Assembly (NCBI GenBank): GCA_046497275.1
Contig: JAWOFX010000178.1
Coordinates: 1-12,779 of the forward strand
DNA length: 12,779 nt
Reading direction: 5' to 3'
DNA from: Promethearchaeia archaeon
GTDB taxonomy: Archaea > Asgardarchaeota > Lokiarchaeia > Sigyniarchaeales > SOKP01
Shown: positions 1,400-4,909 of the stretch, piece by piece
Position numbering within the stretch: position 1 is the stretch's first letter
Layout of the letters: every line of letters starts with the position of its first letter
The notes under the pieces: model-generated
What the model was told of the DNA's origin: nothing
Seen by the model: only the letters and a program-made list of their open reading frames with translations
Databases searched by the model: none
Program-made: the position numbers and the translations under genes

Positions 1400-2824
1400 T
1401 TGTTAATTTTAATGGATAGAAATCTGTTTGAAGCTTGGAGAGAGGTAAATCATCATTATAATAAAATAAAAATATGCAGAAAATCATTAAAAAGTTCAAT
1501 TGTAAGACATAATTATGTATTTTTCAAAAAAGGTGATAAAGGCGTTCTTCGTTGTATTTATTGTGGAAATAAATTAGTAAATGATGAGTTTTCTAAAGGA
1601 TTTTTAAATCATAGAAATAAGTCTAAAGAAGATCAAAATAAGGGTTTTGGGGATATTACAATTTATAGAATTTATTGGTATAAAAATATTAATGGGGGTT
1701 TTTTGGAGTTTCCTGGATTAAATTATGTTGGTCAAACTAAAAATTCAGCATATAAAAGGATATTGGGTAATGGTGGTCATTTCAATAAAGCATTTAATGC
1801 TCCTTCGACTTCAATTGAATATTCCATTAAGAAATATGGAAAGAATTTGGATTTAGCAAAAAAAATATTTCGCTTTAAAATAATTCAGATTGTGAAATTT
1901 CAAGGCAGTTGGACTCTAATAGAAAAAATAAAGGATTCAAATAAACGGAAGAAAATGATTAAAAAATGGCAGAGAAAAACTCAAGAATTAGCAAATAAAA
2001 TAGAACAATTCTGGATAGGTTTCTATCATTCTCAATTTTATCGATTTGGAAGAAATATTCTTCCAGGAGGGAAGAAAACTCGTAGTTTTGCTTCTTTAAA
2101 TTATAAAACATTGGATAAAGTGTTAGAAGAAGCTTGTGTACTATCTAGAATTGCTGTTAGAAAAGATTATGTGTTTGAGAGATTAGATTTAAACGTTACT
2201 CAAAATAGAATTTTGGATAATAACATAAGAAGATGGTATGGAATTAGGAAAAAACCATTTGAGACAATTATAAGAAGAAAAAGGTTAAACAGGATTAAAG
2301 ATCTCTTTGAAAAAGGATATAAAATTAGTGATATTGCAAAAAATATCAATGCTAATAGAAGTGATATTAGAAAGTGGTTAACATCAAGCATTTATAATAA
2401 AAAATTTCCGAAAAAGAGTACAATGGAGATTAGGAAAATAGTTATTTCCACAAAAATTAAATATCTCATTGGCCTCGGTATTAAAAATCCGTCAGATCTT
2501 CTACAAAAATTACCCGGATTTAAGAATTCCGAAGCTATAACGCATTTTATAAGAAGAAATATTAGCTCTTGGTATGATTTAATTAATGAGTTTGCTCCTA
2601 AAAAAGATTATTGGAATATAGCGAAGAAATTAATTATAAAACGATATAAGAATAATTTAAAGTTTGGAAAAAAACTTTATACATCAGTAGAGTTTGCTAG
2701 AATCCTGGGTTCTAAAGCTAATAGTTCCTCTGCTGCTATTAAATACATAAAGAGAAAATTAAATACGGAGCTCTCTTGGTCAGAAATTATGGATTGTGTA
2801 ATTGATAATTTTACTAATAAGTGA
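1400..2824 (+). CDS. GIY-YIG family endonuclease (homing-endonuclease-like) with C-terminal HTH-like DNA-binding region
   Basis: TIYRI...YVGQT...KRI...H, followed by IEQFWI (putative catalytic Glu) and FGRNILPGG (the GxN..PGG motif of intron-type GIY-YIG enzymes). HTH-like GYKISDIAKNINANRSDIRKWL. Very Lys/Arg-rich. Start is either TTG 1400 or ATG 1412. Confidence 0.8.
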   Translation: MLILMDRNLFEAWREVNHHYNKIKICRKSLKSSIVRHNYVFFKKGDKGVLRCIYCGNKLVNDEFSKGFLNHRNKSKEDQNKGFGDITIYRIYWYKNINGGFLEFPGLNYVGQTKNSAYKRILGNGGHFNKAFNAPSTSIEYSIKKYGKNLDLAKKIFRFKIIQIVKFQGSWTLIEKIKDSNKRKKMIKKWQRKTQELANKIEQFWIGFYHSQFYRFGRNILPGGKKTRSFASLNYKTLDKVLEEACVLSRIAVRKDYVFERLDLNVTQNRILDNNIRRWYGIRKKPFETIIRRKRLNRIKDLFEKGYKISDIAKNINANRSDIRKWLTSSIYNKKFPKKSTMEIRKIVISTKIKYLIGLGIKNPSDLLQKLPGFKNSEAITHFIRRNISSWYDLINEFAPKKDYWNIAKKLIIKRYKNNLKFGKKLYTSVEFARILGSKANSSSAAIKYIKRKLNTELSWSEIMDCVIDNFTNK

Positions 2825-2868
2825 ACTGTTTAATATTAAGTAAAAAAATTTAGAAAAAAATATGATAT

Positions 2869-2990
2869 TTAATCCATTGCATATTTTTGCGTCCATTTTT
2901 CTGCCTTTTTCTGAAAACTCTTATGTGAGCGAAAATATTGCTCACCTGCTTCGTGATTCAGCGGATCTCCAGGATTGAAAAAGGGCGGCT
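2869..2990 (-). CDS. Ubiquitin-conjugating enzyme E2 (UBC fold), exon 2
   Basis: Encodes (E)PPFFNPGDPLNHEAGEQYFRSHKSFQKKAEKWTQKYAMD*. This resembles the UBE2D/Ubc4 C-terminus (NPDDPL...EWTQKYAM). Confidence 0.85.
2871..2907 (+). repeat. Direct repeat copy B: the functional E2 3' end (KAEKWTQKYAMD)
   Basis: Matches 1312-1347 at 35/37 and lies inside E2 exon 2. Confidence 0.9.
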
Positions 2991-3022
2991 TTATGCTCTC
3001 AAGCAATAAATTTGCAGGAGAT
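2991..3022 (-). other. Putative 32-nt bulge-helix-bulge (tRNA-type) intron in the E2 mRNA
   Basis: mRNA sense: GC-AUGU-AG^A-UCUC-cu-GCAA-auuua-UUGC-uu-GAGA-GCAU-AA^A-GC. The 4-bp central helix AUGU/GCAU is flanked by 3-nt bulges AGA and AAA, with intron helix UCUC/GAGA and exon helix GC/GC. Cutting after the second nt of each bulge removes exactly 32 nt, including a UAA stop, and joins the two E2 frames as ...MMHVEPPFFNP.... Confidence 0.85.
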
Positions 3023-3410
3023 CTACATGCATCATGCCCTTTAAAGCTTCTATTATGCTTATCAGAGTTTTCGAAGGAGTCCATCCACTTGCTCCTGTTG
3101 CAGGATCAACCTTTCCAACTTTATCTGGATTTATTAAGTCCAAACAAATATTTAATTTTCCCGGGGGGATCGAGGAATCAATATTTGGATGCCACATCAA
3201 GGTCACCGCATAGACATAGGGGGGAGCAAAAGGATAATTATCAGGAAATTTAATTTCAAACACGAATCGTCCATTCTCATAAGGTGTATCATCCTTTCCT
3301 ATAATAGTTAATCTGAGATGGTCAATACTCCTACCCCAAGGTTCTAATATGACATGTTCATCATCTTTATATGCTTCTATTGCTTCTGCATAGTCAGTCT
3401 CTTCTCTAAT
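3023..3410 (-). CDS. Ubiquitin-conjugating enzyme E2 (UBC fold), exon 1
   Basis: The stop-free frame runs from 3416. It encodes REETDYAEAIEAYKDDEHVILEPWGRSIDHLRLTIIGKDDTPYENGRFVFEIKFPDNYPFAPP...WHPNI...NICLDLI...GWTPSKTLISIIEALKGMMHV, containing the TPY, YPFxPP and HPN motifs and the catalytic Cys. There is no in-frame ATG/GTG/TTG before 3263; the start is placed tentatively at ATT 3410. The spliced CDS is 388+122=510 nt, or 169 aa. Confidence 0.85.
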
Positions 3411-3416
3411 CGTTTG

Positions 3417-3423
3417 TCACCTT
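3417..3423 (-). promoter_or_regulatory. Putative archaeal Shine-Dalgarno (AAGGTGA) for E2
   Basis: GGTGA matches the archaeal SD core (GGAGGUGA) and lies 6 nt upstream of ATT 3410. Confidence 0.45.
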
Positions 3424-3801
3424 AGCTTTATGTTTACAAATATTAAATTATTTTTAAAACTTAGATTTTGTAAGTTTATAAAATTATATATTGAATAGTT
3501 AAAAAATTTTGTATAAACAAGACCTAAATTTTATTTTTTAGTTGTTATATTCTTGGTAAAGTATAATATTTTATACATTAAAATTTCAATTATTTTTTAT
3601 TATAAATGTGATATTATCCAACTCAGTGGGAATAAAGACCCAAATTGTTTTATAGTTCCGAGAGTATGATATGAAAGATTCGTGCAAATTCAAGAGCACA
3701 TAATTTAATAGCTCTATTACTAACAATTATAAAATCGAAAAAATTAAATTAATTCCACAATTATAATTTTTATCATAATCCCCTCTTAACTCAGTTGGTA
3801 G

Positions 3802-3829
3802 AAAATATTCTTTTCGAATATTTATCAAA
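3802..3829 (+). other. tRNA intron 1 (28 nt, non-canonical position 22/23 in the D arm)
   Basis: Central helix TGGT(3796-99)/ATCA(3824-27), bulges AGA (3800-02) and AAA (3828-30), intron stem AAATATTC/GAATATTT. Confidence 0.88.
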
Positions 3830-3844
3830 AGTGCTCGGCTGTAG

Positions 3845-3892
3845 ATATAATCGCGTATAAAGGCATCTGCCGATGAATATACGTCAGCCGAA
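3845..3892 (+). other. tRNA intron 2 (48 nt, canonical position 37/38)
   Basis: Removal restores the anticodon loop CTGTAG|A and stem CTCGG/CCGAG. Bulges are AGA and AAA. The central helix CTGT/GCCG has one mismatch (relaxed BHB). Internal stem CGTATA/TATACG. Confidence 0.82.
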
Positions 3893-4128
3893 ACCGAGAT
3901 GTCGCCAGGTCGAGACTGGCAGAGGGGATCACCTAATTTTCCTTCTCAGCTTTTCAATATGTGAATTAGAAATTGAATTTGATTTATGAAATAAAATATT
4001 CATTATCCATAAAGAGAATAAGAATAATATTCCCAAAAAATTTTAATCAGAACAAGCATTATTTCCGCCTTTAATAAAAGTTCTTTTTTATATTGTTAGT
4101 ATTTAATAACATCAGAATTCTCACACCC

Positions 4129-4166: not shown

Positions 4167-4421
4167 ATGATGACAACTGATATGGATACTATAATTTTAA
4201 AGATTGGATCGAAGGGAGAAATCTTTCCTCCAAAAGAAATCCGAGAGAAATTAGGATTTGAACCTAATCAACCAATTTTGCTGCATGTTCATGAAGATCA
4301 ACTAATCGTAAGAAAAATTTACTCAATGGAAGAGATATTGAATGTTCCACCCAAAACGAAAATAAGTTATCATGCTTGGAAACAATTTAAAAAAGATTTA
4401 CTTGAGGAATATGAGTCATGA
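4167..4421 (+). CDS. vapB: AbrB/MazE/SpoVT-family antitoxin
   Basis: IGSKGEIFPPKEIREKLGFEPNQPI matches the AbrB-type swapped-hairpin motif. Its stop overlaps the toxin start (ATGA at 4418-4421). Confidence 0.85.
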   Translation: MMTTDMDTIILKIGSKGEIFPPKEIREKLGFEPNQPILLHVHEDQLIVRKIYSMEEILNVPPKTKISYHAWKQFKKDLLEEYES

Positions 4422-4909
4422 AGATACTCATTGATACTTCATACTTTTTACCTCTTATTAAAATTGGGATTAAAACAATTCCTAATAAGCTCTTAATTGA
4501 TATTCTCGCGAAATCCAACAATACCTATTTTTACTCTAATTTGACCCTTTTTGAGCTCACGGCGAAAGGGTTAAAATTATCATCAAAAGAGAATAAAATA
4601 ACACCCCAAGATGTAAGGATCGGAATTGACACCATTCGAAACGATGCACGACTAACAGAACTATCGTTTACAAATAATCCTTTTATAATCGAATTAGCAT
4701 CTGATTTAAAAAAAGTGCATAATGATACTATAGACTGCTTGATTTTCGCGACTGCAATTTGCACCTGTGATTGTATCATCACGATGGATGAATTTCTCTT
4801 CACTCAAATAAATACAAGGCCTCCATTACTTAAAACGGTGAGAGAACTTAATAGTAGCTTCCAATTTTGGTTTAATGACCTTTCAGGAGAGTTAAAGTCC
4901 CTCAAATAA
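4418..4909 (+). CDS. vapC: PIN-domain ribonuclease toxin
   Basis: ILIDTSYF at the N-terminus, TLFE, DTIDCLIFATA and IITMD give the PIN acidic tetrad. Translationally coupled to the AbrB-type gene. Confidence 0.85.
   Translation: MKILIDTSYFLPLIKIGIKTIPNKLLIDILAKSNNTYFYSNLTLFELTAKGLKLSSKENKITPQDVRIGIDTIRNDARLTELSFTNNPFIIELASDLKKVHNDTIDCLIFATAICTCDCIITMDEFLFTQINTRPPLLKTVRELNSSFQFWFNDLSGELKSLK

Follow-up and report, generated by a model that had tools for sequence, protein, structure and literature searches.

A bulge-helix-bulge intron very probably spliced from the E2 messenger RNA of a Loki-type Asgard archaeon

We describe a ubiquitin-pathway E2 (UBC) gene from a Loki-type Asgard archaeon that is interrupted by a 32-nucleotide (nt) insert at positions 2991-3022. 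The insert is very probably a bulge-helix-bulge (BHB) intron of the E2 messenger RNA (mRNA), cut by the endonuclease EndA, joined by the ligase RtcB and probably spliced constitutively. The window that we analysed is the whole stretch of DNA, that is, the entire 12,779-nt contig C79 of a 3.85-Mb metagenome-assembled genome (MAG) with 30% G+C and 98.9% completeness. The nearest E2 loci lie in Promethearchaeota MAGs, in keeping with the Asgard host proposed in a first-pass annotation made from the sequence alone.

An E2 gene interrupted by a bulge-helix-bulge motif

The E2 coding stretch runs from 3410 to 2869 on the minus strand and is interrupted after MMHV (Table 1). If the insert is left in place, the frame passes from ...ALKGMMHV into DLLQIYCLRA and then a stop (frame end ...MMHVDLLQIYCLRA); it remains open for 10 codons past exon 1, stops within the intron and gives 139 residues. 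The remaining part of the protein (PPFFNPGDPLNHEAGEQYF...WTQKYAMD, starting PPFFNPGDPL...) sits in a different frame. The Pfam profile UQ_con (PF00179) matches exon 1 at positions 22-108 (E = 1.8e-21) and exon 2 at positions 112-139 of 140. The two exons thus hold one UBC domain split in two, with next to nothing lost between the pieces. Exon 1 is 82-95% identical to Lokiarchaeial E2 proteins.

Table 1. Features of the window and of the host genome (G000); a downward arrow marks a cut or junction, here and in the text
Feature	Location	Strand	Description	Evidence
E2 exon 1	3023..3410	minus	residues 1-129 and first base of codon 130; from ATT start codon (3410-3408) to the G of GUAG; HPN motif and catalytic Cys (NICLDL)	translation, Pfam, orthologue identity
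Probable BHB intron, 32 nt	2991..3022	minus	A UCUC CU GCAA AUUUA UUGC UU GAGA GCAU AA; in-frame UAA inside truncates the unspliced reading	alignment to nearest intronless coding sequence, BHB geometry, RNA and DNA runs
E2 exon 2	2869..2990	minus	last two bases of codon 130 (Glu), PPFFNPGDPL...WTQKYAMD, stop TAA 2871-2869	translation, Pfam, orthologue alignment
Whole hBHBh' motif	2980..3042	minus		single-sequence fold, RNAalifold consensus of 13 introns, pair counts with controls
GGUGA Shine-Dalgarno-like element	3417..3421	minus	6 nt upstream of ATT start	sequence and orthologue starts
tRNA-Tyr(GUA) gene, two BHB introns	3780..3928	plus	divergent to E2, 370 bp from E2 start	ARAGORN after intron removal
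EF-1alpha intron, 32 nt	G000 C83:19114-19145	plus	AUGG UA↓U ... CCAU AA↓A, 4/4 central helix	removal restores P-loop GHIDHG↓KSTMMG, GHIDHGKSTMMG
rpoA1 intron, 30 nt	G000 C83:1644-1673	plus	GGGC AU↓A ... GCCC AA↓A, 4/4 central helix	removal restores GHFGH↓IELA
Cold-shock gene intron, 29 nt	G000 C121 17266-17294	minus-sense	4/4 central helix	removal restores cold-shock domain

Excision of exactly 2991-3022 leaves 169 codons (...MMHVEPPFFNP...), and the peptide that spans the junction includes GMMHVEPPFFNPGDPLNHEAGEQYFR. This product aligns end to end with 169-residue orthologues, and its UBC domain is complete to the C-terminal helices, with both the HPN motif and the catalytic Cys. A protein search returned 84 relatives, most of them 169 residues long and named, where they are named, as Lokiarchaeota, Promethearchaeota, Helarchaeota or Hodarchaeota E2. 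About 150 intronless orthologues are contiguous at the junction (...ALKGMMH(V/M)E(P/A)PFFNPGDPL...) and agree there with the predicted product (ALKGMMHVEPPFFNPGDPL). Among the DNA sequences (167 fetched loci and the window), 153 of 168 have an uninterrupted 507-nt coding sequence (CDS). Translation and orthologues therefore bear out the excision, the V-E-P junction and the 169-residue E2 claimed in the first-pass annotation, and its expectation of orthologues that run on without an insertion here (M-x-H-x-E-P/A-P-F-F-N-P) proved correct.

In the minus-strand RNA, the 5' half of the motif consists of AAAGGGC (3042-3036), an AUGAU internal loop, GC (3030-3029), AUGU (3028-3025) and the bulge AGA (3024-3022). 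The inner part of the intron follows as UCUC, CU, GCAA, the loop AUUUA, UUGC, UU and GAGA, with helices of 4 + 4 bp, and the 3' half is made up of GCAU (2996-2993), the bulge AAA (2992-2990), GC (2989-2988), C and GCCCUUU (2986-2980). The ViennaRNA centroid contains the pairings AAAGGGC/GCCCUUU, AUGU/GCAU, UCUC/GAGA and GCAA/UUGC. It agrees with the coordinates, helices and bulges that had been claimed, all of which we checked. The outer helix is 2 + 7 bp (proximal GC/GC, distal 3042-3036/2986-2980). Two 3-nt bulges lie on opposite strands and 4 bp apart. Seen from the central helix, the 5' bulge lies towards the intron and the 3' bulge towards the exon, which is the placement found in pre-tRNA BHB motifs. 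Cuts after the second nucleotide of each bulge take out 2991-3022 (32 nt) and leave GUA G↓AG CCG, read as V-E-P. In this 30% G+C genome, an equally strict motif (4/4 central pairs, at least 2 outer pairs and at least 4 inner pairs) of fixed position and length has a chance expectation of about 1e-4 per position.

Other classes of intron were considered. Group I and group II introns have a ribozyme core of several hundred nucleotides, and spliceosomal introns have GU...AG boundaries and depend on small nuclear RNAs. The E2 insert is 32 nt long, begins AUCU and ends AUAA, and a search of window positions 2600-4100 against Rfam gave no match; it fits none of these three classes.

RNA and comparative evidence for splicing

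Among the listed sequencing runs that contain the stretch, at least 12 are on record as RNA. We compared RNA runs X4, X5 and X8 (three studies; salt lake, 2025) with DNA run X2 (a separate study of freshwater sediment). One contig in each of the three RNA runs joins 2989 to 3022 and is missing exactly 32 nt. The junction (...CAUGUAG↓AGCCGCCC...) has a 1-nt ambiguity and is equivalent to removing 2991-3022, as predicted from symmetric cuts. Across 600-700 nt these contigs are otherwise identical to the window, and the shorter flank of the junction measures 255, 176 and 99 nt. The X2 contig runs contiguously across the insert with zero differences. The spliced junction that the first-pass annotation had proposed to seek in transcripts is thus carried by RNA contigs of three studies, and independently sequenced DNA also contains the insert, which rules out an assembly indel. 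A sequencing or assembly artefact of another kind, such as a spurious 32-nt insertion or a chimeric join in what is, after all, a 12.8-kb MAG contig, has a negligible chance of being correct: the insert recurs without differences in the independent DNA run and, with one base changed, in the separately assembled contig L161, and it has diverged homologues in five genera.

Introns at the same site (CDS nt 388) were found in 13 distinct sequences from these five genera, drawn from metagenome contigs and species-representative genomes. They are 29-32 nt long, and their inner hairpins vary widely yet remain paired. The central helix occurs as AUGU/GCAU, ACAU/GUGU, ACGU/GCGU and AUAU/GUGU, with pairs that vary between U-A, C-G and U-G and between G-C and A-U. 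Its 5' strand codes for His-Val/Met/Ile, and its intron strand tracks the synonymous or conservative changes in these codons. The intron of L209 (genome G147, same genus) is clearly homologous to that of the window and differs from it at four compensatory pairs; L161 has the same insert with a single loop base different.

Given only the MAFFT alignment of the 13 introns, RNAalifold returned the BHB, with double changes in 12 of 19 pairs. In the named structure 95% of cells are paired, a share that drops to 34-53% if the partners are shifted by 1-3 columns, and 11 pairs show compensatory changes, as against 0-3 in the shifted controls. None of 500 shuffles reached its covariation score. The alignment (A2) mis-registers three inner pairs between 32-nt and 30-nt introns, and these columns were left unpaired in the covariation test; a pair count anchored on the cut sites gave 160 of 180 paired, compared with 25-49% after sliding. 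These patterns show that structure rather than sequence is conserved among the site-388 introns, with selection acting on the RNA structure. The outermost exon-exon pair (3042/2980; A2 columns 7 and 69) also covaries, as A-U in 6 sequences and G-C in 6, and both of its bases are coding. The exon complementarity AAAGGGC/GCCCUUU falls within conserved codons for LKG and PPF, so it may be older than the intron.

Two further candidates were rejected as introns and taken as sequencing errors, namely L167, a plain frameshift without an insert, and L166, a 0.9x-coverage contig with scattered small indels. Three rearranged E2 sequences were also observed. L114:2697-2825 is a second, partial E2 C-terminus (residues 127-169, 72% identity) that lies 1.1 kb downstream of a complete gene and begins near the position of the site-388 intron. 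In P0069 an in-frame loss of about 30 residues stops precisely at the site-388 junction (LVG-C-EPPFF), and P0065 has an in-frame loss of 23 residues that include the catalytic Cys. Imprecise intron loss, larger introns removed by the gene caller and misassembly are possible origins of the last two.

Introns are not confined to this site. Relatives have inserts of 29-39 nt after CDS nt about 169-171, 193, 220, 380, 436 and 478 of the 507-nt gene. Nearly all of these show a 4/4 central helix (a few 3/4), 3-nt bulges and a hairpin, as in CUCC AU↓U ... GGAG AA↓A (site 193) and UGGC AU↓A ... GCCG AU↓C (site 220), and their removal at the BHB cuts restores 169 residues. L204 and L216 have three introns per copy. 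Among the 149 genomes of the order with a match, about 18 have an interrupted E2. The site-388 intron is missing from most close relatives, same-genus species included, and on a CDS tree of 203 sequences, which is weakly resolved, its distribution requires no fewer than 11 changes. This patchy distribution would reflect one of three processes: repeated loss, repeated gain or exchange. At site 380, the inserts of L164 (716-745) and L204 do not form a canonical BHB and have at most 2/4 central pairs. These 30-nt inserts are in frame and stop-free, encode a similar peptide (ILGNNSFLNCK / ILRNVSFLNCK) and keep a 9-bp hairpin; they may represent a relaxed motif or an intron becoming coding sequence. 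In L210 this site is occupied by a canonical BHB intron.

Targeted searches of the host genome found three more cases, in EF-1alpha, rpoA1 and a cold-shock gene (Table 1), unlike a genome-wide scan for strict BHB motifs that fuse two open frames, which is taken up below. The genome also encodes the expected enzymes. Two open reading frames (ORFs) of the EndA family, on contigs C46 (30059-30664, 201 aa) and C168 (8025-8627, 200 aa), each match PF01974 and PF02778. The C46 protein comes nearest to the crenarchaeal chains 3p1z_B, 3ajv_B and 2zyz_B, which we take to be catalytic (alpha) subunits of the Aeropyrum and Pyrobaculum heterotetramers; the C168 protein has diverged further. There are two RtcB ORFs (PF01139). 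A published survey (PMC5829648) places Asgard EndA in the (alpha-beta)2 type with an L1 loop, a form linked to broad substrate specificity.

Together, these elements suggest the following mechanism. In the E2 pre-mRNA, exon 1 would pair with the 3' end of the intron (AUGU/GCAU) and with exon 2 (GC/GC and AAAGGGC/GCCCUUU), and this pairing would display two 3-nt bulges separated by 4 bp. The two-subunit EndA of the host would cut after the second nucleotide of each bulge, and RtcB would join the exons. With the in-frame UAA removed and the frame restored, a complete 169-residue E2 could be translated. We infer EndA and RtcB to be the enzymes that act here. We also favour constitutive splicing, because similar introns occur in EF-1alpha and rpoA1 of the same genome.

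Several observations weigh against a spliced intron. The fold energy of the single sequence does not differ significantly from that of shuffles (z = -1.34), and the proximal outer helix is just 2 bp long and is followed by an asymmetric internal loop. Because the fold energy is unremarkable, the case for an intron rests on geometry, relatives and RNA data, not on stability. The RNA evidence consists of assembled contigs, which give no spliced-to-unspliced ratio and no excised or circular intron. RNA-labelled libraries can contain DNA, and the DNA comparator X2 does not come from the salt-lake samples; an intronless DNA allele otherwise 100% identical to the window is formally still a candidate. 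The E2 gene has no in-frame ATG, GTG or TTG start, and its ATT start is inferred from orthologues. The scan of the 3.85-Mb genome, for its part, showed no excess of frame-fusing motifs relative to random pseudo-introns (with 25-40 nt and an inner helix of at least 7 bp, for example, 8 were observed and 7.9 expected). It is too noisy to weigh on either side: 1-3% of random cuts pass, and its contiguous-helix criterion misses real cases, the inner helix of the window being 4 + 4 bp.

The possible presence of DNA in the RNA libraries and the separate origin of the DNA sample leave some room for an insert that is never removed. The joined contigs would then derive from a near-identical intronless strain, by DNA carry-over or as its transcripts, and the window copy would be a pseudogene. 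Other species of the genus do have intronless alleles. However, the closest intronless orthologue that we found shares only 88-91% protein identity, whereas the joined contigs match the window at all other bases over 600-700 nt in three studies. The deletion in such a strain would also need to match the predicted BHB cuts exactly. Covariation, as a sign of selection on RNA structure, is not expected for a dead insert, and both flanking reading frames are intact and conserved. We consider this explanation very unlikely.

Still less probable is that the insert is retained and read past, by ribosome bypass or a programmed frameshift. In T4 gene 60 and in the byp elements of Magnusiomyces mitochondria, an insert kept in the mature mRNA is hopped over by the ribosome. 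The E2 insert is comparable to byp elements as a short hairpin with an in-frame stop just past the take-off region and with similar inserts at several sites. However, RNA contigs from three studies lack the insert. What is conserved is a BHB with exon-intron pairing, not matching take-off and landing codons, and the same motif flanks both introns of the untranslated tRNA-Tyr encoded elsewhere in the window.

A different question is whether splicing, if it occurs as we propose, is regulated. The first-pass annotation had suggested that unspliced mRNA gives a 139-residue E2 that acts as a switch on ubiquitin-like conjugation, a proposal that adds to the intron reading and does not compete with it. 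Translation upholds the 139-residue product with its catalytic Cys, and the open 10 codons ahead of a stop in the intron, as well as retention of the intron in several genera, fit a switch. The switch itself found no support: no measurement here speaks directly for regulation, and three of three RNA contigs are spliced. Similar introns occur in EF-1alpha and rpoA1, where an off state would be lethal, and the absence of the intron from most close relatives implies that any regulatory role is dispensable. Moreover, the break falls at UQ_con position ~108 of 140, so that the truncated protein would lack two UBC helices and probably be unable to fold. Regulated splicing therefore seems unlikely to us, and constitutive splicing of the E2 intron remains the reading we prefer.

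Start codon and neighbouring genes

Among aligned, distinct orthologue sequences, the first codon is ATG in 88, ATC in 45, ATT in 19, TTG in 12 and GTG in 10. Because orthologues also start with ATT or ATC, commonly after GGTGA, the absent ATG is no mark of gene decay. As a separate observation, the spliced X4 contig carries adapter sequence at both ends, at 2705 and at exactly 3410 (the first base of ATT); the X5 and X8 contigs reach 3447 and 3534, beyond the end of X4 at 3410.

Within the window, the tRNA-Tyr gene provides another substrate for the same splicing machinery. Its introns lie at 3802-3829 (D-loop) and 3845-3892 (position 37/38). ARAGORN found no genes in the raw window and called tRNA-Tyr(gta) once both predicted introns were removed. 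Both tRNA-Tyr introns have in common with the E2 intron an exon end GUAG and bulges of the form AG↓A / AA↓A. In the RNA runs, the tRNA-Tyr region was represented by 33 nt only (3896-3928), within a 182-nt X4 contig that then diverges, too little to bear on tRNA splicing.

On the plus strand at 4167-4909, a MazE/AbrB-type antitoxin (84 aa) overlaps a PIN-domain protein (163 aa) by 4 nt, and the pair looks like a VapBC toxin-antitoxin system; the PIN match is sub-threshold (22 bits against the 23.6-bit Pfam cut-off). The neighbouring ORF at 1400-2824 (474 residues), suspected by eye to be a GIY-YIG homing endonuclease, was dropped as such, Pfam giving sub-threshold zf-BED and HTH_7 matches only.

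Implications and comparison with known systems

We lean towards the broader view that Loki-type Asgards carry a genome-wide, dynamic population of endonuclease-spliced mini-introns in protein genes, gained and lost repeatedly and present in essential genes as well, with protein-only mRNA splicing as a routine process and exon-exon complementarity as a possible proto-splice site. If this is true, gene expression in the prokaryotes most closely related to eukaryotes would include protein-only mRNA splicing. Introns of the tRNA type in protein genes have so far been regarded as a peculiarity of cbf5, a single crenarchaeal gene. E2 would be the second case, a eukaryote-signature gene whose need for splicing is seen at the RNA level. 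Introns at many E2 sites and split essential genes would therefore place non-spliceosomal mRNA splicing in the lineage nearest to eukaryotes, and Asgard split genes would offer a concrete system for studying how cells tolerate interrupted genes before the spliceosome. There is also a practical consequence. Gene callers truncate such E2 genes, leaving database fragments of 120-146 residues (for example, P0003, P0004 and P0018). Wherever such introns occur, Asgard proteomes and pseudogene counts are thus in error, which calls for annotation that takes introns into account.

The pre-mRNA intron of cbf5 (pseudouridine synthase) in Crenarchaeota was reportedly described by Watanabe in 2002 and by Yoshinari in 2006. 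Like that of E2, it is a short BHB intron in coding sequence, with a patchy distribution marked by gains and losses and a truncated unspliced reading, and it is removed by a heteromeric (alpha-beta)2 tRNA-splicing endonuclease, the type to which Asgard EndA has been assigned. The cases differ in gene and phylum, E2 being a eukaryote-type gene of an Asgard archaeon (Lokiarchaeia). They also differ in that E2 has seven or more intron sites across relatives, with up to three per copy (L204, L216), and the same genome carries further introns in EF-1alpha, rpoA1 and the cold-shock gene (csp). Splicing of cbf5 was demonstrated by reverse transcription PCR and in vitro cleavage, that of E2 by metatranscriptome contigs only. 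Splicing of archaeal coding-sequence pre-mRNA is documented for crenarchaeal cbf5 (Yokobori 2009, PMC2738675). Our literature search found BHB splicing of coding sequence in archaea for cbf5 only, in a search that left subscription journals largely outside and could have missed a report.

BHB introns of archaeal tRNAs are said to have been surveyed by Marck and Grosjean in 2003. They share with E2 an identical hBHBh' motif and cut positions and presumably the same enzymes. The E2 intron is unlike them in having an mRNA substrate, an outer helix built from coding exons rather than a tRNA stem, and a reading frame that must be restored. Asgard tRNA genes are heavily interrupted, according to a preprint that is silent on mRNA (bioRxiv 10.64898/2026.10.13.758758).

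The spliced product itself resembles class I E2 enzymes of the UBE2D/UbcH5 type in its HPN motif, catalytic Cys and PxxPP/NP...DPL loop, and its C-terminal ...WTQKYAMD is, we presume, UbcH5-like. The archaeal E2 differs from UbcH5 in its expanded active-site loops, its ATT start and its need for RNA splicing. In eukaryotes, HAC1/XBP1 mRNA is spliced in the cytoplasm by the Ire1 endonuclease together with tRNA ligase or RtcB. As with E2, no spliceosome is involved: a protein endonuclease and a tRNA-type ligase together remove a short mRNA intron, and the C-terminal frame changes. However, Ire1 reads twin stem-loops rather than a BHB, the process is stress-regulated, and there is no homology to the E2 intron. 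The mechanism that we propose for E2 is of a known kind. Its novelty lies in the gene, the phylum, the direct RNA evidence and how densely intron sites are packed into one small gene.

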